In this document: positions 5,914 through 63,471 of the stretch, in pieces
Position numbering within the stretch: position 1 is the stretch's first letter
How the letters are laid out: every line of letters starts with the position of its first letter
Assembly (NCBI GenBank): GCA_030601865.1
Contig: JAUWAW010000002.1
Span: 7,410 to 71,409 of the forward strand
DNA from: Candidatus Nealsonbacteria bacterium
GTDB taxonomy: Bacteria; Patescibacteriota; Minisyncoccia; Minisyncoccales; JAUWAW01
Direction of reading: 5' to 3'
Length of the DNA stretch: 64,000 nucleotides
Notes under the pieces: model-generated
Databases searched by the model: none
What the model saw: the letters and a program-made list of their open reading frames with translations, nothing else
What the model was told of the DNA's origin: nothing
Position numbers and translations under genes: made by a program

Positions 5914-5959
5914 TCCAGTAATGACTTCAAATTATGACGATCGTCACGATTTGAAGGAC

Positions 5960-9926: not shown

Positions 9927-9931
9927 TTTTA

Positions 9932-10503: not shown

Positions 10504-10699
10504 AAAAAATCCCGCTTCAAGCGAGATAGGATGACCCTACTCTTTACTCGAAGAGAATTAGGTTAAAATTTTTATGGCGGCATTCTGGCTTTTTACCCAG
10601 TTAAATAATTTCGCCTCTGGCGAAATTGCTGCGGAGCAGCATTTAACCGGGTGAACAGTTGCGGTACAGCTCAGGAATTACACCTGATTTCTCACCATT
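10504..10699 (-). promoter_or_regulatory. Cobalamin (B12) riboswitch with terminator expression platform
   Basis: The minus-strand RNA reads GAGAAAUCAGGUGUAAUUCCUGAGCUGUACCGCAACUGU (core GGUG..AAUUCC..GCNG..CCGCNACUGU). B12 box AAGCCAGAAUGCCGCC (plus coords 10576-10590). Terminal CUCGCUUGAAGCGGG + UUUUUU (10504-10525). Confidence 0.65.
10596..10651. repeat. Three-way-junction repeat, copy A2 (embedded in the riboswitch variable region)
   Basis: CCCAGTTAAAT | AATTTCGCCtctGGCGAAATT | GCTGCggaGCAGC | ATTTAACCGGG. Differs from copy A3 at only 3 positions. Confidence 0.75.
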
Positions 10700-10705
10700 T
10701 ATTTA

Positions 10706-10733
10706 ATTTTACATTTCAAAACTCCTTTGTCAA
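10706..10733 (-). promoter_or_regulatory. Sigma-70-type promoter of the riboswitch operon
   Basis: Minus strand TTGACA (10733-10728), 16-nt spacer, TAAAAT (10711-10706). About 7 nt upstream of the riboswitch 5' end. Confidence 0.55.
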
Positions 10734-10741
10734 TAGTAAGC

Positions 10742-11434
10742 TTATCTTACCTGACAGACATCAAAAAATGGGGCAATGGCTTTTTGGATTTCTAAAAGAT
10801 ATTTGTTGGGATAAGGTTTTTTCTTTTCAAATTTGGGGTCAATGGTTTTCTCTGGTCTAAAATTCTGTAAATAGTATTTTTGGGCTGGTCCAATCCATTG
10901 AGCGATTTTTAAAATGTCTTCTTTTTTAAGTAAAGGGTTTATGGTCGTGCGGAATTCAAAATCTATTTTTGATTCTTTTAAAATCTTGATGCTCTGCTCT
11001 ATATTCCTTAAACTTACTTTTTTGCCCGTCACTTTTTCATATTTTTCCTTGGACGCTTTAATATCTATGGCTACATAATCTATTAATTTCTTTTCAATTA
11101 AACCCTTTAGTATTTTTGGCTTAGAACCATTGGTATCAAGTTTGACTGAATATCCCAATTTTTTAATTTTCTTAACAAAACTTGGCAATTTTTTATCAAT
11201 GGTTGGCTCGCCACCGCACAAAACAATGCCCTCTAAAAGGTCTTTTCTTTCTTTTAAAAAACTGAAAAAATCTTTTTCCAAAATCCTTGGTTGCTTTTTT
11301 ATTTCAGCGGGCAAAACAAGTTCTCTTGAATAACACCAAGGACAGCGATAATTGCAACCAAGACAAAAAACCGTGCAAGCCAGCTTGCCAGGATAATCAA
11401 TAAGGGTTAATTTTTGAAGACCACCAATTTGCAT
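10742..11434 (-). CDS. nrdG: Anaerobic ribonucleoside-triphosphate reductase activating protein (radical SAM)
   Basis: CNYRCPWC cluster motif. 1-nt overlap with nrdD. Confidence 0.85.
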   Translation of the reverse strand: MQIGGLQKLTLIDYPGKLACTVFCLGCNYRCPWCYSRELVLPAEIKKQPRILEKDFFSFLKERKDLLEGIVLCGGEPTIDKKLPSFVKKIKKLGYSVKLDTNGSKPKILKGLIEKKLIDYVAIDIKASKEKYEKVTGKKVSLRNIEQSIKILKESKIDFEFRTTINPLLKKEDILKIAQWIGPAQKYYLQNFRPEKTIDPKFEKKKPYPNKYLLEIQKAIAPFFDVCQVR

Positions 11435-17196: not shown

Positions 17197-17259
17197 ATAT
17201 AAGAACCTTTCGTCGCTTCGCTCCTCAAGAACCTTGATTCGCTAAGGTATAAATATATA
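17197..17259. repeat. 60-nt repeat, copy G1 (reverse orientation), directly 5' of tRNA-Arg(CCU)
   Basis: The reverse complement reads TATATATTTATACCTTAGCGAATCAAGGTTCT-TGAGGAGCGAAGCGACGAA-AGGTTCTTATAT. It matches 31619-31676 except for the core. Confidence 0.7.
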
Positions 17260-17403
17260 GTCTTAAATTAAGATACCATATTTCTGACTTGTTGACAACA
17301 GATTCTTTTGCTATAATTACAAGCGAGGAAGAAATACAAAAATTTATTCTTGTATTTCGACCGAGCGAGTAATTATTTACTGAACAGGAACACAATAAAA
17401 CAT

Positions 17404-20841: not shown

Positions 20842-22526
20842 AGAAAATTCTATTAGGTAATGAGGCGATTGTCAGGGGTGCTCTGGAAGCAGGGGTCAAT
20901 TTTGTTTCTACTTATCCTGGCACACCGGCTTCAGAGATTGGCAATACTTTTTACAAAATCGCCAAAGAAGCTGGGGTTTACCCCCACACCAAACGGGGGC
21001 AAGGCGCCAAAATTGACGAAGTCAGCCCCCGTTCTGGTGTGGGGGTCTATTTTGAATTTTCAACCAATGAAAAAGTGGCTTTGGAAGCTGGGATAGGAGC
21101 CAGTTTTTCCGGTCTTAAAACCTTAGTGGCCATGAAGCATTTTGGCCTTAATGTGGCCTCTGATAGTTTAATGCCTTTTTGTTATACGGGCAGCAAGGGA
21201 CCAACTGTAATTGTCGTAGCTGATGATCCTAACTGCTGGAGTTCAGCTCAATCAGAGCAAAACTCAAGGGCTTATTCTTATTTAGCCCACATTCCTACTT
21301 TAGAACCCTCTGACCCTCAGGAGTGCAAGGATTTCATTAAATTGGCCTTTGAAATTTCTGAAAAATTTAACCTGCCTATCTTAATCAGATTAACTACCCG
21401 CGTCAGCCACCAACGCGCCCCCGTTAAACTCGGCAAACTATCGGGAAGCCATCCCGATAAAGCAAGGTTTGTCAAAGAGCCACAAAGGTTTGTCACTATG
21501 CCGCCCCGAGTTCTGGAAATGAAAAAAGAACTTTTTAAAAAAATAGAAAAAATAAAAGAATTTTCCGAAAAAACCTTTATCAATAAAATAAGTTTGTTGA
21601 CATCGGATGTCAACAAACAAAAGACCGGCATCATCACTTCAGGAGTTTCTTATTTGTATGTAATGGAGGCATTGGAAGAATTAAAAATAGATTTGCCGGT
21701 TTTGAAACTGGGATTCTTTTATCCTCTGTCAGAAAAGAAAATTAAAGATTTTATTAAAAATCTTAAAAAGGTTCTGACAGTTGAAGAATTAGAACCATAT
21801 CTTGAAAAGGAAATAACAGCTTTAGCTAAATCTGTAAATCCTGGACTACAAATCTATGGCAAAGCTCTTTTGCCTGAGGTCGGAGAGTTGAAACCTGACC
21901 ATGTAGTTGCAGCTTTAGCTACTGTGCTTAAAACTCACGATCGTAGAGTTTTAGCACAGCGGGCTGATTTGCCCAAGTTTCCAAAACGTTTGCCAAATCT
22001 ATGTCCTGGTTGCCCTTACTGGCTTGTTTTTGGTGCAGCAAAGAAAGCAGTCGATTTTAAGAAAGTAATCTTTGGCGGTGACATTGGCTGCTATATGTTA
22101 GCTGGCTTGCCACCTCACAATATCCAGGATTATCTTTCTTGCATGGGTTCTTCTATTGGTATAGCTCATGGAATCAAGAAAGCTACCGCCGGGCAACAAA
22201 AACTTATTGCTTTTATTGGCGATTCCACTTTTTTCCATGCGGGCATCCCTGCTTTAATCAACACCGTCTTTAACAAGTCAAACCCCTTAATTATTGTGAT
22301 GGATAACCAAACCATGGCTATGACCGGCCACCAACCTCACCCCGGCGCGCCAGCCAAGCCAGATGGAATAAAAATTGAGAATATTGTCAAAGCCTGCGGC
22401 GTTAAAAATCTAAAAGTGATTGACCCCATCAAACAAAAAGAATTAATAAAAACAATTAAAGAATTTTTAAACAAAAAACAGGTCTCGGTAATTATTGCCC
22501 GAAGACCCTGTATATTTGTAAAATGA
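20838..22526 (+). CDS. iorA: Indolepyruvate:ferredoxin oxidoreductase alpha subunit (TPP-binding)
   Basis: N-terminal GNEAIVRGALEAGVNFVSTYPGTPASEI; CPGCPYW; TPP motif GDSTFFHAG. 4-nt overlap with iorB. Two in-frame palindromic inserts. Confidence 0.8.
   Translation: MKKILLGNEAIVRGALEAGVNFVSTYPGTPASEIGNTFYKIAKEAGVYPHTKRGQGAKIDEVSPRSGVGVYFEFSTNEKVALEAGIGASFSGLKTLVAMKHFGLNVASDSLMPFCYTGSKGPTVIVVADDPNCWSSAQSEQNSRAYSYLAHIPTLEPSDPQECKDFIKLAFEISEKFNLPILIRLTTRVSHQRAPVKLGKLSGSHPDKARFVKEPQRFVTMPPRVLEMKKELFKKIEKIKEFSEKTFINKISLLTSDVNKQKTGIITSGVSYLYVMEALEELKIDLPVLKLGFFYPLSEKKIKDFIKNLKKVLTVEELEPYLEKEITALAKSVNPGLQIYGKALLPEVGELKPDHVVAALATVLKTHDRRVLAQRADLPKFPKRLPNLCPGCPYWLVFGAAKKAVDFKKVIFGGDIGCYMLAGLPPHNIQDYLSCMGSSIGIAHGIKKATAGQQKLIAFIGDSTFFHAGIPALINTVFNKSNPLIIVMDNQTMAMTGHQPHPGAPAKPDGIKIENIVKACGVKNLKVIDPIKQKELIKTIKEFLNKKQVSVIIARRPCIFVK
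20981..21045. repeat. CCCCCACACC stem-loop element, copy D1, in frame in iorA
   Basis: 20-bp stem CCCCCACACCAAACGGGGGC / GCCCCCGTTCTGGTGTGGGGG (one bulge) with a 24-nt loop. Translated as PHTKRGQGAKIDEVSPRSGVG. Confidence 0.8.
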
Positions 22527-23939: not shown

Positions 23940-25345
23940 TTGAATCTTTCTCCGGGGTGCGCGGTATCTGGGGAAAAGGGCTTAATGAAGAATTGGCCAG
24001 AAACTATGCCTGCGCTTACAGCCATCTTTTGGCTAAACAGTTGGGCAGAAAACTGCGCCTAATCATTGGCTACGACCCTCGCGCCTCAAGTAAAGAAATC
24101 GCCCAAATATTTCGGGCTGGTTTTTCTTTTAAGGCAGAAAAAATTATTGATGTAGGCATACTAGCTAAAGCAGCTGTGGAATTGGGAGTAAGAACCTATA
24201 AATTAGATGGCGGGGTTATGATAACAGCCAGTCATAGTCCCAAAGAATTCAATGGCTGGGAACTTTTAGATAAAACAGGAGCGATTATTTCTCCAAGTTT
24301 TTTAGAGAAAGTTATCCGGTTGAGAAAGAAAATTAAAGTTTCTAAACCCACCACCGCTTTTGAAACAAAAATGGTAGAGGACAAACAGCAAGACCTGAAA
24401 AACCTTTATATCAATTTTGCCAAGCAAATTATTGGCAAAAAGGGATTAGACGCAATCCAAAAAAGACACTTTAACATTGTAGTTGACCCAAATGGAGGCG
24501 CGGCCGTATCTTTAATAAAGCAATTTTGCCAAAGATTAGGAGTTAAGAGCCGTTATCTGAATATGGAACCGGGTAAATTTGCCCGAAAAATTGAGCCGGA
24601 TTTTGAGTCGCTCAATTATTTAAAAGAAATAATTAAAAAAGAAAAGGCGGATTTTGCCATCGGCTTTGACTGCGATGCTGACCGAGCAGAGATTGTTTTG
24701 AAGGATGGTTCAATGGTTAATGGACAATATATTTTAGCAATCTCGGTTGAGGAAATCTTGTCCGGCCTAAAAAACCCTCAAGGCAAAATTGTTATTACCA
24801 ATGATTGCACCTCCAACTTGGTCAGAAGGGTAGCTGAAAAATATGACGCCAAAGTAAAAGAAGTTGAAATTAGCGAGATAAATGTGGTTAATAAAATGTA
24901 TCAAGAAAATAGCCCTATTGGCGGGGAGGGTTCAGCTTCAGGGGCCATTTTTCCACCTTCCCGCTGCCGCGATGGGTTTCTAAGTTTAGCAATTATTCTG
25001 CGGTATTTAGCAAGGAAGCAAAAAACATTGGCTGAGGCGCTTGATGAATTTCCTGACTTTTACAGTTTTCGCGACAAACTTAAATGTCCTCCGGAAAAAC
25101 AAATTCAGGTTCGGCAGAGTATCAAAAACTACCTTTTAGACCACGGTTTCAAAATCCAAGAAAGAGGAGGAAAAACAGGCACGGTCAAGGCATTAATTGA
25201 CAAAGATTCTTTTATCTTCTTCCGCGCTTCCAAAACAGAACCCGGGGTCTTCCGAATTATCTCTGACGCCCCAGACAAACAAAAAGCAAAAAAACTGCTG
25301 AAACAAGGCATTGAAATCTTCAATAACCAATTATCTAATATTTAA
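23924..25345 (+). CDS. Alpha-D-phosphohexomutase (phosphoglucosamine/phosphomannomutase family)
   Basis: Active-site loop TASHSPKEFNG, metal loop FDCDADR, SFSGVRG at the N-terminus. The ATG at 23924 is preferred over the track start at 23870. Confidence 0.8.
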   Translation: MSKGLVESFSGVRGIWGKGLNEELARNYACAYSHLLAKQLGRKLRLIIGYDPRASSKEIAQIFRAGFSFKAEKIIDVGILAKAAVELGVRTYKLDGGVMITASHSPKEFNGWELLDKTGAIISPSFLEKVIRLRKKIKVSKPTTAFETKMVEDKQQDLKNLYINFAKQIIGKKGLDAIQKRHFNIVVDPNGGAAVSLIKQFCQRLGVKSRYLNMEPGKFARKIEPDFESLNYLKEIIKKEKADFAIGFDCDADRAEIVLKDGSMVNGQYILAISVEEILSGLKNPQGKIVITNDCTSNLVRRVAEKYDAKVKEVEISEINVVNKMYQENSPIGGEGSASGAIFPPSRCRDGFLSLAIILRYLARKQKTLAEALDEFPDFYSFRDKLKCPPEKQIQVRQSIKNYLLDHGFKIQERGGKTGTVKALIDKDSFIFFRASKTEPGVFRIISDAPDKQKAKKLLKQGIEIFNNQLSNI

Positions 25346-25358
25346 ATAACTCACGATC

Positions 25359-25967
25359 GTGAGCTATAACATCAATAATAATTTTGACAAAACCTTAGCA
25401 AAAGCAGTAAACGTTATTAAACAAGGTAAGGTTTTGCTTTGCCCCTCGGACACGGTTTATGGCTTGATTTGCGACGCCCACAACGAAAAAGCAGTGTGTG
25501 CTCTTTTTGAAATCAAAAAAAGGCCTTTTGAAAAAGCCATTGCTCTTTTTATCAAAGACATTAAAATGGCTAAAAAACATGCCTATATTGATAAAAAACA
25601 AGAAGCGATATTAAAGAAAGTTTGGCCCGGAAAAATAACAGTTATTCTAAAAAGACAAAAAAGTTGCCGACTTCCCAGAATTCTTTTCGCTAATACAAAA
25701 GTAATTGGCCTACGGGTGCCGAATCACAAATTTCTTAATGACTTACTTAAAAAATTAGATGCTCCTTTGGCCGAAACATCAGCTAACATCTCAGGCAAAC
25801 CCGCTTCAACAAAAATAAGAGAAGTTTTAAAGCAATTTGGAAAAGAAAAACGCCAGCCCGATTTAGTTCTGGATGCTGGCGACTTAGAACCTTCTCTTCC
25901 TTCAACCGTCATTGATTTAACCACAAAAAAGATAAAAGTTTTAAGAAAAGGTGCTATTGTTTTTTAA
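25359..25967 (+). CDS. tsaC: L-threonylcarbamoyladenylate synthase (YrdC/TsaC/Sua5 domain)
   Basis: PSDTVYGLICDA, GLRVPNH, ETSANISGKP motifs. The GTG start lies inside a CTCACGATCGTGAG palindrome. Confidence 0.8.
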   Translation: MSYNINNNFDKTLAKAVNVIKQGKVLLCPSDTVYGLICDAHNEKAVCALFEIKKRPFEKAIALFIKDIKMAKKHAYIDKKQEAILKKVWPGKITVILKRQKSCRLPRILFANTKVIGLRVPNHKFLNDLLKKLDAPLAETSANISGKPASTKIREVLKQFGKEKRQPDLVLDAGDLEPSLPSTVIDLTTKKIKVLRKGAIVF

Positions 25968-26106: not shown

Positions 26107-26120
26107 AAAAAAACCAGTTT

Positions 26121-26177
26121 ACCCAGTTAAATAATTTCGCCTTTGGCGAAATTGCTGTGAAGCAGCATTTAACCGGG
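26121..26177. repeat. Three-way-junction repeat, copy A3
   Basis: ACCCAGTTAAAT | AATTTCGCCtttGGCGAAATT | GCTGTgaaGCAGC | ATTTAACCGGGT. Confidence 0.75.
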
Positions 26178-26236
26178 TTTAACCTGTTTAACATAATCAT
26201 TTTGTATTCTAAACTTATTCTACTTTTTTGTCAAAA

Positions 26237-30368: not shown

Positions 30369-30468
30369 CTTCCACCTCTTCCTTATTGTATTGTTAAAAT
30401 GGAAGGACTACCTTCCACTATGTTTATTTTACCACCACAACATTAAGATGTAAATGAACACAGAACTC

Positions 30469-30507
30469 AATACGCCATAATTCTGCCATGGCTTTCTTAC
30501 GGCGTAT
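30469..30507. repeat. AATACGCC palindrome, copy C1
   Basis: AATACGCCATAATTCTGCCATGGCTTTCTTACGGCGTAT. It supplies the spurious upstream ATG (30488) of the next ORF. Confidence 0.75.
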
Positions 30508-30523
30508 ATGTTATAATGAGATA

Positions 30524-31108
30524 ATGACTAAATATAAATATTATTTTAGGAAACCGAGGTCGGAAATTGTTAAAGATGTTCTTTCGTGGTTAATGGTGGC
30601 TGGAATGATTTATATAGCTGCCGGTTCTCCGTATTTTGTTGCAAATGTTTCAAAAAGCTTTAAGAAGGCGCGAAAATATAAAAAGAAAAGGGTCTATGAT
30701 ACTTTTTATAAATTACAAAAACAAGGGTGCATTAAGATTACGAAGAAGAATAAGCAAATTTACATTAGCTTAACGGAAAAAGGTAGAAAGAAAGCGGGGT
30801 GGCTTCAGATAGATAGTTTGAAAATAAAAAGACCTAAAAAATGGGACGGCAAATGGAGAATAGTTATTTTTGACATTGCTCAACTTAAAAAAATGTATCG
30901 TGAGGCATTTCGAGGGAAATTAAAAGAGTTAGGATTTCGCCCCTTGCAAAAGAGTGTCTGGATTCATCCCTTTGACTGCCAAGATGAAATAGAACTCTTG
31001 AAAGATTTTTTCGGATTATCAGAAAAAGAAATGCGATTTATTGTTGCCCAAGACATTGGCCAAGACGATAAAATTAAAAAGAACTTTAACCTTTCACAAC
31101 CAAATTGA
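30524..31108 (+). CDS. PaaX-C-terminal-like domain protein with N-terminal TM/wHTH-like region
   Basis: KKWDGKWRIVIFDIAQLKKMYREAFRGKLKELGFRPLQKSVWIHPFDCQDEI is the W-G-W-(I/V)-FDI...GF..LQ.SVW..P pattern. The ORF is flanked by C1 and C2. Confidence 0.55.
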   Translation: MTKYKYYFRKPRSEIVKDVLSWLMVAGMIYIAAGSPYFVANVSKSFKKARKYKKKRVYDTFYKLQKQGCIKITKKNKQIYISLTEKGRKKAGWLQIDSLKIKRPKKWDGKWRIVIFDIAQLKKMYREAFRGKLKELGFRPLQKSVWIHPFDCQDEIELLKDFFGLSEKEMRFIVAQDIGQDDKIKKNFNLSQPN

Positions 31109-31127
31109 AAAGCAAACTAGGACACAC

Positions 31128-31167
31128 AATACGCCATAAGAAAGCCATGGCTTTTTTATGGCGTATT
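31128..31167. repeat. AATACGCC palindrome, copy C2 (inverted relative to C1)
   Basis: AATACGCCATAAGAAAGCCATGGCTTTTTTATGGCGTATT. Confidence 0.75.
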
Positions 31168-31532: not shown

Positions 31533-31595
31533 GGAGGCCGAAGGCCGACGAAGGGTCTCGTGACTTAACAACGGGATTCTTCGGCTTCGCCTCAG
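31529..31595. repeat. GC-rich imperfect hairpin overlapping the rpsT stop (terminator/repeat)
   Basis: CTGAGG-AGGCCGAAGGCCGACGAAGG...CTTCGGCTTCG-CCTCAG. Shares TGAGGAG(G)CCGAAG(G)CCGACGAA(A/G)GG with the core of repeat G1. Confidence 0.55.
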
Positions 31596-31618
31596 AATGA
31601 CAGTTTCTTAATTCAAGA

Positions 31619-31676
31619 TTATATATTTATACATTAGCGAATCAAGGTTCTGCGAGCAAAGTGAGCAGGTTCTTAT
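31619..31676. repeat. 60-nt repeat, copy G2
   Basis: TATATATTTATACATTAGCGAATCAAGGTTCT-GCGAGCAAAGTGAGC-AGGTTCTTATAT. Confidence 0.7.
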
Positions 31677-35392: not shown

Positions 35393-35464
35393 TGCCCCTA
35401 GCAGGAATCGAACCTGCACCTTGACCTCCGGAGGGTCACGTTCTATCCATTAAACTACAGGGGC
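35393..35464 (-). tRNA. tRNA-Arg (anticodon CCG)
   Basis: Acceptor GCCCCTG/TAGGGGC, D arm GTTT-AATGGATA-GAAC, anticodon arm TGACC-CTCCGGA-GGTCA, T arm GCAGG-TTCGATT-CCTGC. Confidence 0.85.
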
Positions 35465-36201
35465 TTTTCTGCTACAATATAGAAATTGGAGTTTGGGCTT
35501 TTCTCGCGGGAAACAATGATTTGGTCGCTCTTTTTTATGTTAAGCTCTACTTTCCCAATTAGTCCTTCCAGTTCTTTTTTAGTAAAACAATGAAAGTAAC
35601 ATTTGGGCAGACCTGCAAAAGGAATTATAATATCATTGGAACCACACTTCCTTTTAGGATGACTCCGCAAATTCCAAACTGTCAAAATCAACAATCCCTT
35701 GGGTCGCAGCACTCGCTTTGCTTGTCTTAGAAACTTCAACCGTAAGGCCTCTGACGGAATATGGTGCAGCACAGCAATGCTGTAAATCTTGTCAAAAAAA
35801 TTCTTGGGAAAAGGCAAATTCAAAGCGTCAGCTACCTGAAATTTTGCCTTTGGGTACTTGTTTTTAGCAATCTCAATTAATTTTTCAGAATTATCCACGC
35901 CAATATAGTCAATATCCTTGTCTTTCAAAATCTCAAAAAATCTGCCATTGCCACAGCCCAAATCCAATACTTTGTCTCCGGGGACTAAATAATCGTCAAA
36001 CAAAAACCTGAATTCGTCCCAAACTTTCTGTCTTCTGCTTGAAAATTGTTGGGCAAATTTATTATAATATTGGTAATGTTTTTTTATGTCAATTTTAGAA
36101 AAAATAATTTTAGAACTATTAAAATCTCGTGTCAAAACCCGGGCTGATTTGGATTCGTTCAAAAGAAAAGTGGCCAAAGAGTATAAAACTCCCTGCCCCA
36201 C
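35455..36201 (-). CDS. Class I SAM-dependent methyltransferase (start uncertain)
   Basis: Motif I VLDLGCGNGRF and post-I DYIGVDNS. The track start overlaps elp3 by 116 nt. A TTGACA-17-TAAAAT promoter at about 36096-36124 suggests a shorter, non-ATG-initiated product. The last 3 codons overlap the tRNA. Confidence 0.65.
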   Translation of the reverse strand: MGQGVLYSLATFLLNESKSARVLTRDFNSSKIIFSKIDIKKHYQYYNKFAQQFSSRRQKVWDEFRFLFDDYLVPGDKVLDLGCGNGRFFEILKDKDIDYIGVDNSEKLIEIAKNKYPKAKFQVADALNLPFPKNFFDKIYSIAVLHHIPSEALRLKFLRQAKRVLRPKGLLILTVWNLRSHPKRKCGSNDIIIPFAGLPKCYFHCFTKKELEGLIGKVELNIKKSDQIIVSREKSPNSNFYIVAEKPL

Positions 36202-37741
36202 TAATGTAGAATTACTTAAAACTTACCACAAATTGGTTAAAAAGAAAAGGTTGAAGAAAGACGGGGTAATAGAAAAGTTGCTTTGCACCAGGCCTATTCG
36301 TTCGCTTTCTGGCATTGTTAATGTCTCTGTTTTAACTAAGCCCTATCCCTGCCCGGGTCAATGTATTTTCTGCCCCAGCCAAAAAGGCATTCCCAAAAGT
36401 TATTTAAGGGGCGAACCTGCGGTTCAAAGGGCGATTTTAAATAAGTTTAATCCCTATTCGCAGGTCCAAACACGGCTAAAAAGTTTGCAAAAAACAGGCC
36501 ACCCAATAGACAAAATTGAATTAAGAATAATCGGTGGAACCTGGTCTTATTATCCCAAACAATATCAAACCCGGTTTGTTAAAGAATGCTTCCAAGCTTG
36601 CAACGAATTTTCTCCCCTAAAACAAATACGCCATAAGAAAGCCATGGCAGAATTACGGCGTATTAAGGAAAAGGAATTGGAAAAAGAATTGAAGAAAGAG
36701 CAAAAAGCAAACGAGAAAGCCAAGTGTCGGGTGGTTGGAATAACAATTGAAACTAGGCCAGATTATATAGATATTAAAGAAATAAAGCGGATGAGAGAAC
36801 TGGGCATAACCAGGGTGGAATTGGGGGTGCAAAGCATTTACAATGATGTTTTGAAATTAAACAAAAGGGGCCATGGCATAGAAGCGACAATTAAAGCAAC
36901 CAAACTTCTGAAAGAGTCCGGCTTTAAGGTTTCTTATCAAATGATGCCCAATTTGCCCGGCAGTACCTCCAAAAAAGACGTAAAAATGTTTGAAGAGATT
37001 TTTGAAAACCCTGATTTCCAACCCGACCTCTTGAAAATTTATCCCTTGGCCTTGCTCAAAGAAGCTCCTTTGTATAAATGGTATCAAAGAGGAAAGTTTA
37101 AACCGTATTCTGATAAAAAATTAATTAAGCTTTTAATAGAAATCAAAAAGAAAATCCCTTATTGGTGCAGAATCCAAAGGGTAATCCGGGATATTCCCTC
37201 AGCAGATATTGTTGAAGGAGGAGTTAAAATCTCAAATTTAAGAGAAGTTGTTCAAAAAGAAATGAAGAAGCAAGGATTGAAATGCAAATGCATCAGATGC
37301 CGGGAGGTGAAAAAAGATTACAACTCCCAAGAAAAATCTGTGCTTTTTCGCCAGGACTATAATGCCTCTGGCGGCAAGGAGGTATTTCTGACTTTTGAAG
37401 ATAAAAAAAGACAAAAACTCTATGCTCTGCTCCGCCTGCGCATCCCCTATCCAAAAGTGGCAAAGGACAGTCCTCTGCCAATTCTGAAGGATGCGGCGAT
37501 AATTAGGGAGGTTCATACTTATGGTCAACTCCTACCCATTCAACACAGAGATAGGACGAAAATAGGACAGTCGCCTCAACATAAGGGGTTAGGCAAAAAA
37601 CTGATTAAGCAGGGAGAAGAAATCGCCAAACAAGAGTTTGGCACAAAAAAAATAGCCGTCATCTCCGGCGTGGGAGTCAGGGCATATTACAGAAAACTCG
37701 GCTATCACCTGAAGGATACTTATATGATTAAAAAACTGTAA
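36086..37741 (+). CDS. elp3: Elp3-type radical SAM/GNAT tRNA U34 modification enzyme
   Basis: Radical-SAM cluster region PCPGQCIFCPS, VVGITIETRPD, RVELGVQS, and C-terminal GNAT QHKGLGKKLIKQGEEIA. Confidence 0.85.
   Translation: MSILEKIILELLKSRVKTRADLDSFKRKVAKEYKTPCPTNVELLKTYHKLVKKKRLKKDGVIEKLLCTRPIRSLSGIVNVSVLTKPYPCPGQCIFCPSQKGIPKSYLRGEPAVQRAILNKFNPYSQVQTRLKSLQKTGHPIDKIELRIIGGTWSYYPKQYQTRFVKECFQACNEFSPLKQIRHKKAMAELRRIKEKELEKELKKEQKANEKAKCRVVGITIETRPDYIDIKEIKRMRELGITRVELGVQSIYNDVLKLNKRGHGIEATIKATKLLKESGFKVSYQMMPNLPGSTSKKDVKMFEEIFENPDFQPDLLKIYPLALLKEAPLYKWYQRGKFKPYSDKKLIKLLIEIKKKIPYWCRIQRVIRDIPSADIVEGGVKISNLREVVQKEMKKQGLKCKCIRCREVKKDYNSQEKSVLFRQDYNASGGKEVFLTFEDKKRQKLYALLRLRIPYPKVAKDSPLPILKDAAIIREVHTYGQLLPIQHRDRTKIGQSPQHKGLGKKLIKQGEEIAKQEFGTKKIAVISGVGVRAYYRKLGYHLKDTYMIKKL
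36625..36664. repeat. AATACGCC palindrome, copy C3, in frame in elp3
   Basis: AATACGCCATAAGAAAGCCATGGCAGAATTACGGCGTATT, translated as IRHKKAMAELRRI. Confidence 0.75.
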
Positions 37742-39093: not shown

Positions 39094-39398
39094 TGCTTTG
39101 ACGAAGATACCTTACCAGAATTTTAACCTTTTGTCAAACTCTGTTTCAATCTGCTCCGATCGGAGTAATTTGAAACGCTTTACCAAAAAATAAAAATGTT
39201 TAAAACTCACGATCGTGAGTTATTTAAACAAAGAAAAATATAATAGCCGTCCCGCAAGGAACGGCGGATAAGTTCACTGAGAGAAAATGCCTCCAGTAAA
39301 ACCGATTTTCCCTCTGTTTGCTGCTTCATTACAATTGCCCCCTTTCTGTTCTATGAGGTTTCTCTTTCTTCACAAATTGGTAAAGTTCTAATCTCCTG

Positions 39399-45482: not shown

Positions 45483-45492
45483 TTTTATCACA

Positions 45493-45516
45493 CTTTTCCT
45501 ACGATCGTAGAAAAAG
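45493..45516 (+). terminator. CGATCG-centred palindrome acting as rplT terminator
   Basis: CTTTTCCTACGATCGTAGAAAAAG. Confidence 0.5.
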
Positions 45517-45546
45517 TAGTATAAAATACGGGGAATTTTGCTATTT

Positions 45547-51876: not shown

Positions 51877-51909
51877 TTAGAATTTAACGTCATATTCTCA
51901 GGTTCATTT

Positions 51910-51945
51910 TGTGTCAAAATCCTGCGATCGCAGGATTTTGACACA
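51910..51945. repeat. Perfect 36-nt palindrome centred on GCGATCGC, copy H7
   Basis: TGTGTCAAAATCCTGCGATCGCAGGATTTTGACACA. Identical to 59186-59221, including the flanks TTT...GTTTT. Confidence 0.85.
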
Positions 51946-51960
51946 GTTTTTTATTGTTTA

Positions 51961-57898: not shown

Positions 57899-58618
57899 AT
57901 GAATGTTTTCATTGCCATTTTCAATACGGTTCTTTACCAGCCATTATTTAATGTCCTGGTATTGTTCTATGAATACATTCCCGGGCATGATTTTGGAGTC
58001 GCGGTGATTGCTTTGACTTTTTTGATACGGATTCTAACCTATCCCTTGGGCATCAAAGCCATTAAATCCCAAAAAGCTATCTCTGAAATTCAGCCAAAAC
58101 TAAATGAAATTAAGGAAAAATACAAAGATGATAAAGCAGCGCAAGCTAAAGCCACCATGGAGGTTTACCAAAAAGAAAAAATCAACCCTTTTTCTGGTTG
58201 CCTGCCTTTATTGATTCAATTCCCGGTCTTGCTGGCTCTTTTTCGGGTATTTTGGAGGGGATTTTCTGCAGAACAGATGGTTTATCTTTATAGTTTTGTC
58301 CCCCATCCCGGCCAGATTGACCCTAGTTTTTTGGGCGTGATAGACCTTAGTCACCCCTTTGCTGTTTTAGCGGTTTTAGCCGGAGTTTGTCAGTTTATTC
58401 AAACAAAAGTGATGACACCTAAACAAAAGGTCCAAAAGAAAAAGGGAGGTGATTTCTCTTCTATGTTCCAAAAACAAATGCTTTATTTCTTCCCAGTTTT
58501 TACTGTTTTAATTGTCTGGCGACTTCCTTCAGCTATTGCTCTTTATTGGATAACTACTTCTTTGTTTTCCATCGGCCAGCAACTTTTGGTTCTGCGAACC
58601 AAAAGTCAAGAACCTTAG
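57899..58618 (+). CDS. yidC: Membrane protein insertase YidC (short, Gram-positive-like form)
   Basis: LTYPLGIKAIKSQKAISEIQPKLNEIKEKYKDD, INPFSGCLPLLIQFPVLLALF. Confidence 0.88.
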   Translation: MNVFIAIFNTVLYQPLFNVLVLFYEYIPGHDFGVAVIALTFLIRILTYPLGIKAIKSQKAISEIQPKLNEIKEKYKDDKAAQAKATMEVYQKEKINPFSGCLPLLIQFPVLLALFRVFWRGFSAEQMVYLYSFVPHPGQIDPSFLGVIDLSHPFAVLAVLAGVCQFIQTKVMTPKQKVQKKKGGDFSSMFQKQMLYFFPVFTVLIVWRLPSAIALYWITTSLFSIGQQLLVLRTKSQEP

Positions 58619-58645
58619 AACCTAAGAACCTAAAAATATAAAAAT

Positions 58646-59107
58646 ATGCTTAACAGAGATAGTTTAAAACAAATTAAGAAAATAGTGGAGGAGTTTTTTG
58701 ACAAGATGGACATTCCAGTGGAAATTCAGGTGTTGTCTCTAGAAGAAAAGACCCTTCCCATAAATCTGAAAGTAGAAGAACCTCGCTTTTTAATTGGAGA
58801 AAAAGGCTGCACCCTAACCGACATCCAGCGGCTTTTAGCAGTTATCTTAAAGAGAAAAATTGCCGGACCCTTTTATCTTAATCTTGATATCAATGATTAC
58901 AAAAAGAAAAAAGCCGAATATTTAAGAGAAACCGCCCGTTCAATGGCTGACGAGGTAGCTTTAACCAAAAAAGAAAGGCAGCTGCCGCCAATGTTGGCTG
59001 CGGAAAGAAGAATTATCCATTTAGAATTGGCTGACAGAGCAGATGTGGCCACCGAAAGCATGGGCCAAGACCCCATAAGAAGAGTCGTCATCCGGCCGTA
59101 TCCCTAA
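58646..59107 (+). CDS. jag: Jag/KhpB-type RNA-binding protein (KH + R3H)
   Basis: Position after yidC; the C-terminal R3H region PMLAAERRIIHLEL. Confidence 0.8.
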   Translation: MLNRDSLKQIKKIVEEFFDKMDIPVEIQVLSLEEKTLPINLKVEEPRFLIGEKGCTLTDIQRLLAVILKRKIAGPFYLNLDINDYKKKKAEYLRETARSMADEVALTKKERQLPPMLAAERRIIHLELADRADVATESMGQDPIRRVVIRPYP

Positions 59108-59143
59108 AAACCTAAAAACCTAAAAATATAAAAAACAAAACTG

Positions 59144-59170: not shown

Positions 59171-59185
59171 TATCTCTGTCAATTT

Positions 59186-59221
59186 TGTGTCAAAATCCTG
59201 CGATCGCAGGATTTTGACACA
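59186..59221. repeat. Perfect 36-nt palindrome centred on GCGATCGC, copy H8
   Basis: Identical to 51910-51945. Confidence 0.85.
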
Positions 59222-59237
59222 GTTTTGAAAGTAGAAA

Positions 59238-59260
59238 CCAGCGAGAACGGTTCTCGCTGG
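59238..59260. terminator. Bidirectional terminator hairpin
   Basis: CCAGCGAGAACggTTCTCGCTGG flanked by A/T runs. Confidence 0.6.
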
Positions 59261-59272
59261 TTTTAATTTTAT

Positions 59273-60784
59273 CTATGGGGTGGGCGGTGAGGCCTGACTA
59301 GCCGGGCAGGCAGTGTCTTTATCTGGTATACCACCTACACCTGTCCAGTGTGCCTCACATCCTTTGCCTTGTTCACATAAAAAAGTTTGGCGTTCGTCTA
59401 CGTCAGAACACTCAGCAGCACTAATTATCTTAAAGCTGTCCAAATCATCTTCCCAAGTTCCTTTTGCCTCACCCCATTTAGCTCCTAATTCACACTTTTC
59501 TAAATCATCGTAAAAGTTTTTAAAGCATATTTCAGCCCATTGTGTTCCAGGCCATCCTTGGGCTAATGTGCTGCATTGGGGCGTGGCATAAATTTTTATA
59601 GCGTAGCCCGAATCTATTTTTATTGAACGGATTTTATCCCAGACACGTTCATAACATTGTTCAACTACTTCCAAACCTTGGGTGCGGTCGCCGCTCCAGT
59701 CTTTATTAAAAAACAGGACGACTTTATATTCTGGCGAAGGCGCTAGATTTAATATTACTTTGGCGGGTATTACCCATTTATCTCCAGATTTCTGTCTATA
59801 TTTTTCAGGTATATAATCTTTATCAAAAGGAATTTCCCAACTTTCATCTATTGTAAATGTTCCTCCTTTCATATCTAACGTTTTTTTGCCTATTTCCTTT
59901 TCAACCCTGTGTCCCAGTATATTTACCCCCACTGTGAGCTTCATCTCTTCTTTGGCGCCTGGGTCTACTGTTATTCTAAATGGTCCTTCGTCTTTTGTGT
60001 ATACGGTGGTGAGTTGTTTAATTTCCTTTGGTCCGTAATGCCACACCCCTAAAGTAGCTTCAATAGTTGTTTTGCCTGGTATTCCTGCTATTGGTTCTAT
60101 TTTTGTTATTGTAAGCTTTATAGGAAGGTCTTCTCCAATGGCAAGATGGAAAGTTTTATCTAGGGAAACAAAGTTTCTTGAACTAAAATCCTTTGACCAT
60201 AATTCATCAACTCCTTCAATAATATAGGCCTTTTTATTGTCTGTATCAACTTTTAGTACAACCGCACGGTATAGGGTTTCGTATTTTATGCCTGTATTTA
60301 TATCCCATGCAAAAGTGGAAGGGCTGATTTCCGGCTCTATTACTCTAACGCTTATTGTTCCTACCCGGGCAAGGGGGAGTTTTGTCATTTTTTCCAAGTC
60401 AGGTTCTTTTAGGGCGACTAATTCTGGGTTAATGGTGTTGAGGATTAAGTAAGAACCGAGGAGCAGAGCCAGGCCTAAGAGCGCGGAGAAGATTTGGTTT
60501 TTGGCATCACCCATTTTGCTGGGGTCGCCCATTGAGGTTAGATAGCGAAACCCACCCACTACAATCATAATGAAAGCAGCTACTCCGGCAATGACCAGAA
60601 ATACATTAAAAAGCTCTCCAACGAGCGTTACTAAAGAGGTCTCGCCTGCTGCCATTTTCTCTCTTGTTTCTTTAAGAAACCAATCGGGATAGTCAAGCTG
60701 AAAAGCATAAACCGACGAGGACAAAAGAAGTCCGAGTAAGATAATAAAGGTTGTTTTAATTAGTTGTTTTGAGAATTGAGTCAT
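59273..60784 (-). CDS. Pilin-module fusion protein 1: signal peptide + VirB2/TrbC-like two-TM 'T4SS pilin' module + about 380-aa beta-rich ectodomain with a Cys-rich tail
   Basis: SSSVYAFQLDYPDW...LVGELFNVFLVIAGVAAFIMIVVGGFRYLTSMGDPSKMGDAKNQIFSALLGLALLLGSYLILNTINPELV. The module is about 75% identical to that of the next gene. Confidence 0.6.
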   Translation of the reverse strand: MTQFSKQLIKTTFIILLGLLLSSSVYAFQLDYPDWFLKETREKMAAGETSLVTLVGELFNVFLVIAGVAAFIMIVVGGFRYLTSMGDPSKMGDAKNQIFSALLGLALLLGSYLILNTINPELVALKEPDLEKMTKLPLARVGTISVRVIEPEISPSTFAWDINTGIKYETLYRAVVLKVDTDNKKAYIIEGVDELWSKDFSSRNFVSLDKTFHLAIGEDLPIKLTITKIEPIAGIPGKTTIEATLGVWHYGPKEIKQLTTVYTKDEGPFRITVDPGAKEEMKLTVGVNILGHRVEKEIGKKTLDMKGGTFTIDESWEIPFDKDYIPEKYRQKSGDKWVIPAKVILNLAPSPEYKVVLFFNKDWSGDRTQGLEVVEQCYERVWDKIRSIKIDSGYAIKIYATPQCSTLAQGWPGTQWAEICFKNFYDDLEKCELGAKWGEAKGTWEDDLDSFKIISAAECSDVDERQTFLCEQGKGCEAHWTGVGGIPDKDTACPASQASPPTP

Positions 60785-60840: not shown

Positions 60841-60960
60841 GTTAACCCTGTCAAATAAAAATTCTCCGAATTTTTACGGCTCGCCCTGTTAAATAATTTG
60901 CTTTGCAAATTAAAATCGGAGATTTTATTTAACGGGGCAAGCCGTATTTGACGGGGTTAA
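60841..60960. repeat. Nested three-way-junction repeats (copy A4 inside another copy)
   Basis: Outer copy: GTTAACCCTGTCAAATA | AAAATTCtccGAATTTT | TACGGCT[..]AGCCGTA | TATTTGACGGGGTTAA. Inner copy (60883-60938): GCCCTGTTAAAT | AATTTGCtttGCAAATT | AAAATCggaGATTTT | ATTTAACGGGGC. Confidence 0.75.
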
Positions 60961-63344
60961 TCTGGGCAAGCTCCTCCTTCTACTGTTGGCCCTATTATAG
61001 GATGTACTATAATAGCAATATGGTCTTTCTCCGCCCAAGTAGTCCCGCCGCACCTGTGAATGGTATCCGTTAAGGCACTAATTTTATGTTGGTCTTTAAG
61101 CTCTACAGCATAAGAGAAAGCTACTTCTCTCCAGGGCTTAATAAGGGTACATATCTTTCCATAATGCCAGGAGCCACACTCCCGGACACACTTATCAGGG
61201 TCATTTGACTCACCGCAATTAACTTCCGGATTTTGACAGGGTGGCAATTTACATTTGTCATAGTCACACCCGTCAGTGCCTCCTCTATCTGGAAGGTTCG
61301 GGTCAGAGATTGAACTAATGGGACCAGGATTTATAGGTGCACCTTTAACTGGGTCTGTGTAAATGCACTCAATAACGTCTTTTAGAGCTTGAGTAGCATC
61401 ACTCCATTGTTTTGAAGTTTTAATAAATCCTGCGAATACCCCTGCCTTGTCGCAATCCGGAATTTTATCTGTATCGCAGACCATAGGCCAGGGAGGACCG
61501 CTTGGTTTTTCGGTACAAACCCCTTGGCAACAATAACCAATCGCGCAAGCACCGGTTAGAATAGAACAGTTATTATAAGCGCTACAAGGATTATCTTTAC
61601 AAATTCCAGTGCATGTTGTAGGCACCACTGGTCCTCCTGTTACCTCTCCACAGACAAAGAAATCAATTGGCCCACATTCTTTTATTTTTTGTATTAAATC
61701 CGGTGTTGTTGGGCAGCAGGGAAAGATATCGTAGCCGGGACAATGATCCGGGTTTCCAGTCCATAGATATCCAGTTTCTGTATTATCATATTCTAACATA
61801 GCTTGTATATCCTCGCAAAGATAAAGACCTTGGCCCGTAGAAGCTCTTTTTGTTTCATCTACTATACCGGCTAAAGTAGTATAGTGTTGTCTTAATCCGT
61901 CAGGACACAAAACATCAGAACATATTTCTTCTGGCTTTGGCCCAGCAATTTGCTTTGCCTTTTGTTTTTTCTCGGCAAAGCCATTAGGGAAAGGAGCAGA
62001 GGAATTTTCAGGTTGTTCACAGGGTGCCCCACATTCCCAGGGAGGAATTAGGCCATCGCCTTTGGTGTGGCAGCCCTGAAGATCAGGCAAGCACCAGAAC
62101 TTTGTTATTCTTTCATTTAGTTCTGCTTTAAGAGGAGGAAGAGGAGGAGAGCAAGAGCAATTGACATTTTTACATTGACAGCCATCAGCTGCTGCAGCTA
62201 ATTTATCAATGGCATCATATGCTTGTTTAAGTGGCTCTATGGGAAAGGTAATTTTTTCATATTTTGTCTCTTCTCCCTCTGCCCAGATGCAATAGAAATC
62301 ACGTCCCTCTTCGCAGTCAATTGGCCCGAGCCAATCTTGGACACTCTTGGCATATGAGCAGGGGAAAAGTATTTTTCCTTCATCAGCTATACACTCGTTT
62401 ATATCTTCTTTTGCCTGGTCTAAGGCTAATTTTAATTTATCTGCTGTTAATAAACCCTCGTTAACAACTGTTTCAACTTTGTCTATTGCTTTATTGATCC
62501 CGTTTTCTGCATTTGGTTCTGGGCAGGTTTCTTCTCCGGTATCGCAGAAAGGCGGAGTGCAGTTCCCTGGAGGGTCTGGAAAGGATCGTGATATTGGAAT
62601 TATTATTGGTTCGGTGCCTCCTGGACAACCCAGATCAGTACAAGGTTGGAAACAGTAAAGCCCTATAAATGGGAGAGTTGCCCACGGTTTACAGCAACCG
62701 TCATAAAGACATGGGCCCCATGCTGGTATATTTATTACCATCTCGCCCTCCACTGCAAATTGATATTGACAATTATGTCCTTTGCAGTATTGCCGTGCAT
62801 CGCGCTGTTTGGCGAATTTGGCAAAACTTGTCATTGTTCCTACGACATTTTTTGTTTTAAGAAATTTTATGGTGTCGTCAATTGCCTGGTCTAAATCAAT
62901 TGAGGTAATAACTTTTGGTATTGGCGGAGTAGGAGGTTCTGGCGGTTCTGGTTCTGGAGCTTTGACCACTTCTTCTATGGTTGGTTCTGTTAATTCTACT
63001 AATTCAGGACCAATGGTATTGAGAATTAAAAAAGAAGCCAGCAAAAGCACCAAGCCAATTAAAGCATTGAAGACCTGGCTTTTAGCATCACCCATTTTGC
63101 TGGGGTTGCCCATTGAGGTTAAATAACGAAATCCGCCCACGACAATCATAATGAAAGCAGCTGCTCCGGCGATGACCAGAAACATATTAAAAAGAGCGCC
63201 AACCAAATCTTTCAAAGACATATCTGTTTCAAGGGGCAACCAATCAGGATAGTCAAGTTGGAGAGCGTAGACAGAAGAAGTAAAAGAAAGCCCGAGTAGA
63301 ACGAGAAATGTTATTTGGATTGAATATCTTGAGAGATTAGACAC
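60957..63344 (-). CDS. Pilin-module fusion protein 2: signal peptide + VirB2/TrbC-like pilin module + Pro-rich linker + about 650-aa very Cys-rich ectodomain
   Basis: TSSVYALQLDYPDW...LVGALFNMFLVIAGAAAFIMIVVGGFRYLTSMGNPSKMGDAKSQVFNALIGLVLLLASFLILNTIGPELV, then PEPEPPEPPTPPIP, then dozens of Cys. I prefer the GTG at 63344 (VSNLSRYSIQITFLVLLG, parallel to MTQFSKQLIKTTFIILLG). The track TTG start at 63383 lies in repeat B2. Confidence 0.6.
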   Translation of the reverse strand: MSNLSRYSIQITFLVLLGLSFTSSVYALQLDYPDWLPLETDMSLKDLVGALFNMFLVIAGAAAFIMIVVGGFRYLTSMGNPSKMGDAKSQVFNALIGLVLLLASFLILNTIGPELVELTEPTIEEVVKAPEPEPPEPPTPPIPKVITSIDLDQAIDDTIKFLKTKNVVGTMTSFAKFAKQRDARQYCKGHNCQYQFAVEGEMVINIPAWGPCLYDGCCKPWATLPFIGLYCFQPCTDLGCPGGTEPIIIPISRSFPDPPGNCTPPFCDTGEETCPEPNAENGINKAIDKVETVVNEGLLTADKLKLALDQAKEDINECIADEGKILFPCSYAKSVQDWLGPIDCEEGRDFYCIWAEGEETKYEKITFPIEPLKQAYDAIDKLAAAADGCQCKNVNCSCSPPLPPLKAELNERITKFWCLPDLQGCHTKGDGLIPPWECGAPCEQPENSSAPFPNGFAEKKQKAKQIAGPKPEEICSDVLCPDGLRQHYTTLAGIVDETKRASTGQGLYLCEDIQAMLEYDNTETGYLWTGNPDHCPGYDIFPCCPTTPDLIQKIKECGPIDFFVCGEVTGGPVVPTTCTGICKDNPCSAYNNCSILTGACAIGYCCQGVCTEKPSGPPWPMVCDTDKIPDCDKAGVFAGFIKTSKQWSDATQALKDVIECIYTDPVKGAPINPGPISSISDPNLPDRGGTDGCDYDKCKLPPCQNPEVNCGESNDPDKCVRECGSWHYGKICTLIKPWREVAFSYAVELKDQHKISALTDTIHRCGGTTWAEKDHIAIIVHPIIGPTVEGGACPD

Positions 63345-63346
63345 AG

Positions 63347-63471
63347 AATAATCACCAAGATACAAGAAACAATAACCAAACAAATCTCAATAACCAATAA
63401 CCAAACAGTTTGGTGATTGGTTATTGAAGATTGGTTATTGTTTGTATCTTGTTTCTTGGTGATTGGTTATT
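63347..63471. repeat. Long imperfect hairpin, copy B2
   Basis: AATAATCACCAAGATACAAGAAACAATAACCAAACAAATCTCAATAACCAATAACCAAAC-ag-GTTTGGTGATTGGTTATTGAAGATTGGTTATTGTTTGTATCTTGTTTCTTGGTGATTGGTTATT. Confidence 0.75.

Follow-up and report, generated by a model that had tools for sequence, protein, structure and literature searches.

In Escherichia coli, the regulator PaaX recognizes a 39-bp operator, TGATTC-N27-GAATCA, and represses its own promoter, Px, by steric hindrance (review PMC9493321). Repetitive extragenic palindromic (REP) repeats have a conserved tetranucleotide, GTAG or CGTC, at one of their ends (PMC3733652), and the genes for their partner proteins, the REP-associated tyrosine transposases (RAYTs), are short and flanked by repeats (PMC3337134). 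The palindrome HIP1 of cyanobacteria is over-represented 15- to 300-fold, within genes as well as between them, and can exceed one copy per gene (PMC5861425), and Elhai's model links such highly iterated palindromes to CGATCG and GATC methyltransferases (PMC4390886). Here we analyse a 64-kb stretch of a Candidatus Nealsonbacteria contig (hereafter the window), in which palindromes centered on CGATCG recur and two perfect 36-nt copies are identical. These CGATCG-centered palindromes are real and highly non-random. We consider it about an even bet (a probability near 0.5) that they serve as cognate DNA targets for dimeric PaaX-like proteins, the eight CGATCG copies of the window being solo members dispersed by copying. 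PaaX binding to its 39-bp site in E. coli is the basis for this reading, and a dimeric DNA-binding protein, one of three options raised by the first-pass annotation, gains specific support from palindromes of the same class that flank PaaX-like genes in every relative examined.

CGATCG-centered palindromes in the window

The window has 39.4% G+C and is ~89% coding. It contains eight CGATCG sites, compared with 2.95 (standard deviation 1.49) expected from dinucleotide-preserving shuffles, a 2.7-fold enrichment; none of 100 shuffles reached eight. The sites, each of them unstranded, are:

5925–5956, unstranded: CTTCAAATTATGACGATCGTCACGATTTGAAG, a CGATCG near-palindrome 3 nt past the comEC stop
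21929–21954, unstranded: TAAAACTCACGATCGTAGAGTTTTA, an imperfect CGATCG palindrome within an iorA-like open reading frame (ORF), in a linker between Pfam domains
25341–25369, unstranded: TTTAAATAACTCACGATCGTGAGCTATAA, a CGATCG element at the PGM/tsaC junction
39143–39176, unstranded: GTTTCAATCTGCTCCGATCGGAGTAATTTGAAAC, a CGATCG element upstream of the SLOG gene, beside a TTGACA box
39199–39228, unstranded: TTTAAAACTCACGATCGTGAGTTATTTAAA, a CGATCG element with an 18-nt perfect palindrome, downstream of tRNA-Glu
45488–45521, unstranded: TCACACTTTTCCTACGATCGTAGAAAAAGTAGTA, a CGATCG element between the convergent rplT and FGE-sulfatase genes
51906–51950, unstranded: identical block containing 36-mer copy 1, TGTGTCAAAATCCTGCGATCGCAGGATTTTGACACA, a perfect palindrome at 51910–51945
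59182–59226, unstranded: identical block containing 36-mer copy 2, TGTGTCAAAATCCTGCGATCGCAGGATTTTGACACA, a perfect palindrome at 59186–59221

The first-pass annotation had suggested that every CGATCG it noticed lies at the center of an extended palindrome, and enumeration and flank scoring of all eight window sites bear this out, as all are symmetric. The perfect palindromes at these sites are 12, 8, 14, 12, 18, 12, 36 and 36 nt long, and all eight also lie in longer imperfect dyads of ~25–45 nt. When all 64 palindromic hexamers were compared, CGATCG was an extreme outlier, with symmetry at 9.4 of 12 flanking positions; 58 of the 59 other hexamers that occur scored 0.75–5.0, the exception being GGATCC (two sites) at 5.5. 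Extension by at least three perfect pairs was found at seven of eight CGATCG sites versus 7 of 765 sites of the other palindromic hexamers. Perfect palindromes of at least 12 nt are fewer in the window than a Markov model predicts (14 versus 24.5), and CGATCG lies at the center of 7 of these 14. Despite the high coding density, seven of the eight lie between genes or at their edges.

The identical 36-mers listed in the first-pass annotation were confirmed, and their identity even extends over 45 nt, with ATTT to the left and GTTTT to the right of the palindrome, before similarity ends. Copy 1 lies 15 nt 3′ of the polX stop and 244 nt 5′ of the DUF3160 gene start; copy 2 sits amid two ordinary terminators of the convergent jag gene and a gene resembling type IV secretion system (T4SS) pilins. 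The other listed sites also held up, but the element at 21931 is an imperfect palindrome with a one-base indel and that at 45493 has one mismatch. The octamer GCGATCGC occurs twice in the window, each time within a 36-mer. By their arms, the eight sites comprise two identical copies, three of an AACTCA type and three singletons. The 25341–25369 element is 93% complementary to the element at 39200–39228, and the 39143–39176 copy is the only CGATCG site in the window that adjoins a −35-like box (TTGACA). For the iorA copy, we found no solved homologue structures spanning the region that would permit an insertion comparison, and no iorA or ELP3 homologues were present among the fetched relative loci.

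Across 80 dnaA loci of Parcubacteria relatives (855 kb), just 6 of 56 CGATCG sites are symmetric, so symmetry at CGATCG is lineage-specific, and we rejected a palindromic context for all CGATCG sites as a phylum-wide property. Five of these six sites are copies flanking PaaX-like genes in three loci (L044–L046). In exact searches, a 21-nt half-site of the 36-mer had no match in JGI metagenomes, its 30-nt core and AACTCACGATCGTGAGTT had none in IMG/VR, and its 24-nt core gave two unrelated, terminator-like matches in GTDB species genomes, among which the window's own genome is not included. These results lend no support to a mobile sequence that is widely shared or to an origin in phages.

Matched palindrome pairs around PaaX-like genes

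The lead came from locus L045, in which two copies of a 38-nt palindrome, CTGTTCCATTTTGCTGCGATCGCAGCGAA(A/T)TGGAACAG, bracket a 200-aa gene whose product Pfam assigns to PaaX_M, the Cas2-like central domain of PaaX. Homologues were picked solely by protein similarity and contig size; similarity matches numbered 1,926 for family 1 and 91 for family 2, and 11 independent genes were examined for their flanks. A matched palindrome pair (28–46 nt) brackets all 11 genes, with CGATCG centers in six cases and CCATG(G/A) centers in five. Family-1 proteins, which are 65–81% identical to the PaaX-like protein encoded in the window (L086, L087, L089 and L095), all have CCATG(G/A)-centered pairs in which the core TTAATTCTGCCATGGCTTTCTTAA is kept and the outer arms co-vary. 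Family-2 proteins, 51–63% identical to that of L045 (L091, L092, L093 and L094), all have CGATCG-centered pairs. Locus L093 encodes a second paralog, closer to family 1, with a 46-nt pair centered on GCGATCGC. From genome to genome the arms are unrelated, but the two members of a pair have matching arms, and the two L093 paralogs each have their own arm type. The gene neighborhood differs in every genome. Within ~15 nt after the upstream copy, a −10-like hexamer is observed in the window, L045, L086, L087 and L092–L095; such a box is not evident in L089 and L091.

In L091, the CGATCG element upstream of the family-2 gene is part of a 101-nt tandem repeat present in three copies (9620–9890), the first two of which have degenerate right arms; downstream of this gene, ~11 copies of GGGAGAA occur in a run (10690–10790). 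Many contigs carrying PaaX-like homologues are only ~0.65–1.4 kb long and barely exceed the gene, a pattern that fits assembly breaks at the palindromes on either side.

Among 38 long spacer-less palindromes in 1.11 Mb of Parcubacteria DNA, 15 are CGATCG-centered and 9 of these 15 abut PaaX-like genes, in a sample biased by loci fetched with the CGATCG pattern (L002 and L003) or via PaaX-like genes (L091–L094). Short repeat pairs 0.3–1.5 kb apart in the loci bracket PaaX-like genes in 7 of the 27 cases listed (six distinct, with L093b counted twice), and two other pairs that were examined (L009 and L031) bracket genes of the rnpA/yidC region. The CGATCG and CCATGG types are not the only long palindromes of Parcubacteria, which have several further families. 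In L092, another 38-nt palindromic repeat (TGTATCGGAATTTCAAT...ATTGAAATTCCGATACA) with an A/T center lies between pilin genes at 6001–6038 and 7648–7685. We found nothing in the literature that combines PaaX with Cas2 or Parcubacteria, and nothing on Patescibacteria palindromic repeats of the CGATCG/CCATGG kind or on their association with PaaX.

The window itself contains a second palindrome family, centered on CCATGG (D7) and present in three copies, two of which form a matched pair around a PaaX-like gene:

30468–30507, unstranded: D7 copy 1, ending 2 nt before the extended −10 element TGTTATAAT (30510–30518) of the PaaX-like gene
30524–31108, + strand: PaaX-like gene, 194 aa from ATG 30524, with a winged helix and a Cas2-like domain
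31126–31167, unstranded: D7 copy 2, 42 nt with one mismatch, 18 nt past the PaaX-like stop
36621–36663, unstranded: D7 copy 3, reverse-complementary to copy 1, inside the ELP3 ORF

An ORF starting at 30488, with its ATG inside the CCATGG palindrome, encodes 206 aa, as in public protein P0121, and homologues have ~191 aa. The extended −10 element lies 3′ of that first ATG. Translation therefore probably begins at ATG 30524, at a distance of 5 nt from the −10 box, which would mean a leaderless mRNA; start-codon calling would then be misled because the ATG within CCATGG is taken as the gene start. The gene lies between unusually long intergenic regions of about 690 and 560 nt. The spacer between it and holA also contains one member (31592–31651) of a 60-nt inverted repeat pair, 87% complementary, whose other member (17228–17287) lies by tRNA-Arg. 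D7 copy 3 (43 nt) occurs within a Lys/Glu-rich, in-frame insertion of ~22 aa (~66 nt; SPLKQIRHKKAMAELRRIKEKEL, at 36608–36679) in ELP3 (36086–37741), an insertion that is not present in the ELP3 structures from M. infernus (archaeal) and D. mccartyi (bacterial).

The window PaaX-like protein matches Pfam PaaX_M with an E value of 4.9e-20. Its AlphaFold (AF2) model (pLDDT 77) has E. coli PaaX (8a39; E 4e-6) as the best fold match in the PDB, followed by Rv0674 and 3l09. The C-terminal half of the model matches Cas2 and the N-terminal half matches winged helices of the PadR/AspA type, and by sequence the winged helix is closest to AspA, a centromere-binding protein of archaea. The motif WD..R..FD..R..R..Q.S is invariant, as are the Asp of Cas2 β1 (FDI) and QKSV across both families. 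The protein lacks the C-terminal ligand domain of PaaX and is tied to the CCATGG type, not the CGATCG type.

Aligning 50 half-sites from 25 CGATCG palindromes on their center revealed shared anatomy: G at −14 (33/50), C at −10 (36/50), A at −9 (34/50), A/T at −8 (50/50) and a purine at −1 (47/50), counts that are not independent because pairs come from one genome. The resulting profile, cTGTTTCAA-N7-CGATCG-N7-TTGAAACAg, is fitted by the window 36-mer (TGTGTCAAAATCCTG/CGATCG) and by the 39143–39176 site, and the three AACTCA/CGATCG sites form a shorter subtype. The core CTGCGATCGCAG is common to the window 36-mer and the L045 pair. A parS or centromere site was rejected as an identity for the CGATCG palindromes, as a search of the window for parS (TGTTNCACGTGAAACA-like 16-mer) returned a single match with three mismatches, no better than chance. 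The outer arms TGTTTCA...TGAAACA (39143–39176; L092 9943–9980) are halves of canonical parS (TGTTTCAC/GTGAAACA) split by 22 nt, a likeness that is probably coincidental.

Predicted sites of PaaX-like proteins and competing explanations

We propose that the elements form one class of spacer-less Parcubacteria palindromes of up to ~46 bp with a C-S-A-T-S-G center (CGATCG or CCATGG), whose type copies would be the matched pairs directly up- and downstream of small PaaX-like genes. A PaaX-like dimer, held together via its Cas2-like domain, would bind the double-stranded palindrome, with contacts at the center and at outer positions G−14, C−10, A−9 and W−8 (GTTTCAA-N7-CGATCG-N7-TTGAAAC). Through the upstream copy, where it abuts a −10-like box, the protein would repress its own gene in the manner of PaaX at Px. 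Binding of such a dimer to a 34–46-bp palindrome next to the −10 box of its own gene would thus be in line with known PaaX-family behavior. Solo sites, including those of the window, would stem from copying or insertion, much as REPs relate to RAYTs. For the window's CGATCG copies, one or more cognate PaaX-like paralogs would be expected elsewhere in the genome, one bracketed by TGTGTCAAAATCCTGCGATCGCAGGATTTTGACACA and another by AAAACTCACGATCGTGAGTTTT-type arms. The palindromes, their non-randomness, the bracketing of PaaX-like genes in relatives, the placement beside promoters, the PaaX fold and the copying or insertion of elements are observations; binding by a PaaX-like protein, a cognate paralog outside the window and the way in which copies spread are inferred.

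Several observations weigh against this proposal. No CGATCG-type PaaX-like gene was found in the 64 kb by tblastn, so the window's eight CGATCG copies are linked to such genes by class resemblance only. Relatives with a PaaX-like gene have few solo copies (~1 per 100 kb), compared with eight in the window, and the outer consensus is fitted by only some of these eight sites, the arms being heterogeneous. A repressor needs conserved half-sites, not a variable spacer that is perfectly palindromic; full-length symmetry and arm covariation therefore indicate an added hairpin/cruciform or copy mechanism. Identity over 45 nt at two loci and an in-frame copy in ELP3 are the behavior of a mobile repeat, not of an operator. 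The second copy, always 3′ of the gene, and a neighborhood that differs in every genome likewise go beyond a simple operator and resemble REPs or Rickettsia palindromic elements (RPEs). The copy-and-spread behavior of the palindromes suggests some DNA transaction, and a role as recombination sites, another option of the first-pass annotation, is conceivable. By analogy, there may be a previously undescribed partnership of repeat and protein, REP–RAYT-like but built on PaaX-like/Cas2-like proteins, each with its own 30–46-bp palindrome family, which the protein would bind and perhaps cut or mobilize via the Cas2-type Asp, the palindromes spreading intergenically and even in frame into essential genes; we regard this only as a tentative idea, more apt to be wrong than right.

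The same features make mobile repeats a possible, if doubtful, explanation in their own right. The elements would then be non-autonomous mobile palindromes, intergenic and occasionally in frame, with the PaaX-like/Cas2-like protein as a RAYT-like partner (possibly a mobilizing nuclease) or with an unrelated mover, and regulation would be secondary or absent. Besides the 45-nt block, the ELP3 insertion relative to both archaeal and bacterial structures and the changing neighborhoods, this explanation draws on copies that are variably present or absent at orthologous intergenic sites of L004, L005 and the window; on a short, flanked gene, as for RAYTs (PMC3337134), with a repeat type specific to each paralog; and on the invariant Cas2 β1 Asp (FDI) and QKSV motif. 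Contig ends fit as well: many homologue contigs are ~1 kb, and that of L005 ends in one palindrome (3′ end inside a CGATCG element) and starts beside another (5′ end 17 nt before a CCATGG center). By count, the window has eight CGATCG-type and three CCATGG-type copies in 64 kb, with heterogeneous arms. However, no transposase fold and no HUH/Y1 domain were found, and in PaaX the Cas2 domain is a dimerization module; none of the window ORFs encodes a Y1 transposase, and the gene that the repeats flank is PaaX-like instead. Neither a target-site duplication nor a conserved terminal tag was seen, and the GTAG/CGTC tetranucleotide does not occur in the aligned half-sites. Solo copies near the gene are as sparse in relatives as noted above, the upstream copy appears to be positioned at the promoter in the fashion of an operator, and the polX 36-mer is vertically inherited between the window and L005, where 34 of 36 visible bases are identical, including the 5′ flank, making the element better conserved than adjacent coding DNA. 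It is less probable still that the palindromes are ordinary RNA hairpins, either bidirectional intrinsic terminators or 3′ stem-loops that stabilize mRNA, with GATC as a tetraloop that happens to be closed by C-G. Of the seven intergenic CGATCG sites, five do lie 3–30 nt past stop codons, all sites fold stably (z −2.9 to −12), a terminator scan scored 51909–51946 as terminator-like on the + strand, and the 24-nt core AAAATCCTGCGATCGCAGGATTTT occurs in two unrelated metagenome-assembled genomes (MAGs) as a textbook A-tract/stem/T-tract terminator. Yet each of the convergent genes around copy 2 is already served by a canonical terminator, with copy 2 located between the two; the T-run of copy 1 is on the + strand, which has no gene upstream, and AAAATG follows the stem on the polX strand; and most other CGATCG sites lack a T-run. 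Non-palindromic loops (ttc, ttt, c/g) are typical of terminators in the window, and the CGATCG type accounts for only 3 of 21 intergenic perfect-stem hairpins. RNA does not need a self-complementary loop, leaving unexplained why all eight CGATCG sites are palindrome centers, and the upstream copies at PaaX-like genes precede a −10 box.

Two further explanations fare worse. Methylation or repair, as in the HIP1 model (a CGATCG methyltransferase plus biased repair), or a restriction–modification (R-M) target of the PvuI type is very unlikely to account for the palindromes. The GCGATCGC core is shared with HIP1, and something acts on the relevant tetramers: GATC occurs 44 times versus 152 expected, an observed-to-expected ratio of 0.29, with ratios of 0.67 for CATG, 0.38 for CTAG and 0.40 for TCGA. 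Eight of the 44 GATC sites are CGATCG palindrome centers, and the depletion of GATC suggests past or present restriction pressure. The HIP1 analogy drawn in the first-pass annotation is right about the octamer, but two GCGATCGC octamers and eight CGATCG sites in 64 kb do not amount to hyper-abundance; HIP1 was rejected on these grounds, with seven of the eight CGATCG sites being intergenic. Moreover, the model explains an 8-mer, not arms of 30–46 nt that vary between genomes yet match within a pair. Nothing in the window supports the methylation or restriction option of that annotation either. Scanning 58 ORFs with Pfam revealed no convincing R-M genes, DNA methyltransferases, restriction enzymes or transposases; the sole methyltransferase trace was a sub-threshold N6_N4_Mtase match (E 0.009) on a protein of the small-molecule type (Methyltransf_11) at 35455–36201. 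A PvuI-like R-M target was rejected, given that CGATCG is enriched 2.7-fold rather than avoided and that the window has no R-M genes. We give almost no credence to the 36-mers as boundary or recombination sites delimiting an origin-proximal polX–dnaN–dnaA/rnpA–jag block. They do bracket this block, 7.24 kb apart, and as palindromes are mutual direct and inverted repeats, but the domain boundary around oriC proposed at first pass fails because the copies are not both conserved in relatives. L004 (79% DnaA identity) has the same gene order with neither copy, and L005 (81% DnaA identity) keeps the polX copy but has a CCATGG-type element at jag. In addition, the other six CGATCG palindromes are far from the origin, the window has no parS-like site, and such pairs in relatives bracket a 0.6-kb PaaX-like gene, not the origin.

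Genomic context and comparison with described systems

The gene set of the window is of Patescibacteria type (Pfam, 58 ORFs), including T4SS-pilin-like genes, ComEC, NrdD/G, FtsZ, ELP3 and RtcB, and its DnaA homologues are Parcubacteria/Nealsonbacteria-like. Rfam identified only four tRNAs. Several other repeats were observed. A 61-nt repeat (95% identical) occurs in two intergenic regions (10592–10652 and 26118–26178), has no Rfam match at gathering score and folds with an outer stem (ACCCAGTTAAAT/ATTTAACCGGGT) enclosing the hairpins AATTTCGCC-tct-GGCGAAATT and GCTGC-gga-GCAGC; either a structured RNA or one more small repeat family is possible. A G/T-rich (TTGGTTATTG-like) repeat of ~100 nt is found at 9930–10035 and 63349–63464 in direct and inverted register (80–82%), the latter copy being itself an inverted repeat with 57-nt arms beside the start of a pilin-like gene. 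Tandem 8-nt CCTAAGAA/CCTAAAAA repeats mark the 3′ ends of yidC and jag (58605–58652 and 59103–59134). A 237-nt direct repeat (78%; 60386–60622 and 62967–63203) lies in two adjacent T4SS-pilin-like genes (59273–60784 and 60957–63383), an indication that their products are paralogous surface proteins. Terminator hairpins of this genome also occur in look-alike sets; for example, the bidirectional terminators at 1157–1183 and 59235–59263 have the core CGAGAAC-N-GTTCTCG in common, and GGC-ttc-GCC loops recur in several others.

More broadly, in the tiny genomes of Patescibacteria, or the candidate phyla radiation (CPR), few regulators can be recognized and few mobile repeats have been described. 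The small PaaX-like protein considered here is highly conserved (65–81% identical, in many MAGs) and always bracketed by its own long palindrome. If the proposed binding is true, an uncultivated phylum would gain a regulator whose site can already be predicted. Should the protein propagate the palindromes as well, the arrangement would represent a second, independent REP–RAYT-like symbiosis, with a Cas2-fold protein, and would bear on the origin of Cas2 and of CRISPR-repeat recognition. At a practical level, the palindromes appear to break short-read assemblies, as seen in the ~1-kb homologue contigs and at both ends of L005.

The elements have parallels in several described systems. As in HIP1, GCGATCGC is found in the 36-mers and in the pairs of L093b and L045, and CGATCG is the target of cyanobacterial methyltransferases of the DmtB type; unlike HIP1, the elements are mostly intergenic, have long and variable arms, belong to another phylum and come with no methyltransferase seen in the window. 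With bidirectional intrinsic terminators they share an A-tract/GC stem/T-tract core (AAAATCCTGCGATCGCAGGATTTT) and a location after stop codons, whereas they have a self-complementary loop and outer arms that extend beyond the T-tract, and their T-run is either absent or found on the wrong strand. The ELP3 copy resembles RPEs in being an in-frame palindromic repeat in a conserved protein, with a tolerated added peptide, although RPEs are ~100–150 bp and have no associated flanked gene. REP/REPIN–RAYT systems are similar in having a short gene flanked by its own palindromic repeat type, specific for each paralog (as in L093), and solo copies that are mainly intergenic and after genes. By contrast, the CPR partner is not a HUH/Y1 transposase, there is no GTAG/CGTC tag, the CPR elements are perfect palindromes where REPs are imperfect, and CPR copy numbers are low so far. 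Finally, the CPR proteins differ from PaaX itself in their size (~190–215 aa), in lacking the C-terminal phenylacetyl-CoA-binding domain and in having no paa genes nearby; their sites are full spacer-less palindromes with a conserved CGATCG or CCATGG center, arms that vary between genomes, a second copy always 3′ of the gene and dispersed solo copies, one of them in frame in a gene. Nevertheless, they have the same fold as PaaX, a winged helix plus a Cas2-like central domain. Their elements (~24–46 bp), although different in sequence from the 39-bp operator, are like it unusually long, with outer half-sites that are inverted and about 20–27 bp apart, and at most loci one copy appears to lie at the regulator's own promoter, as at Px.

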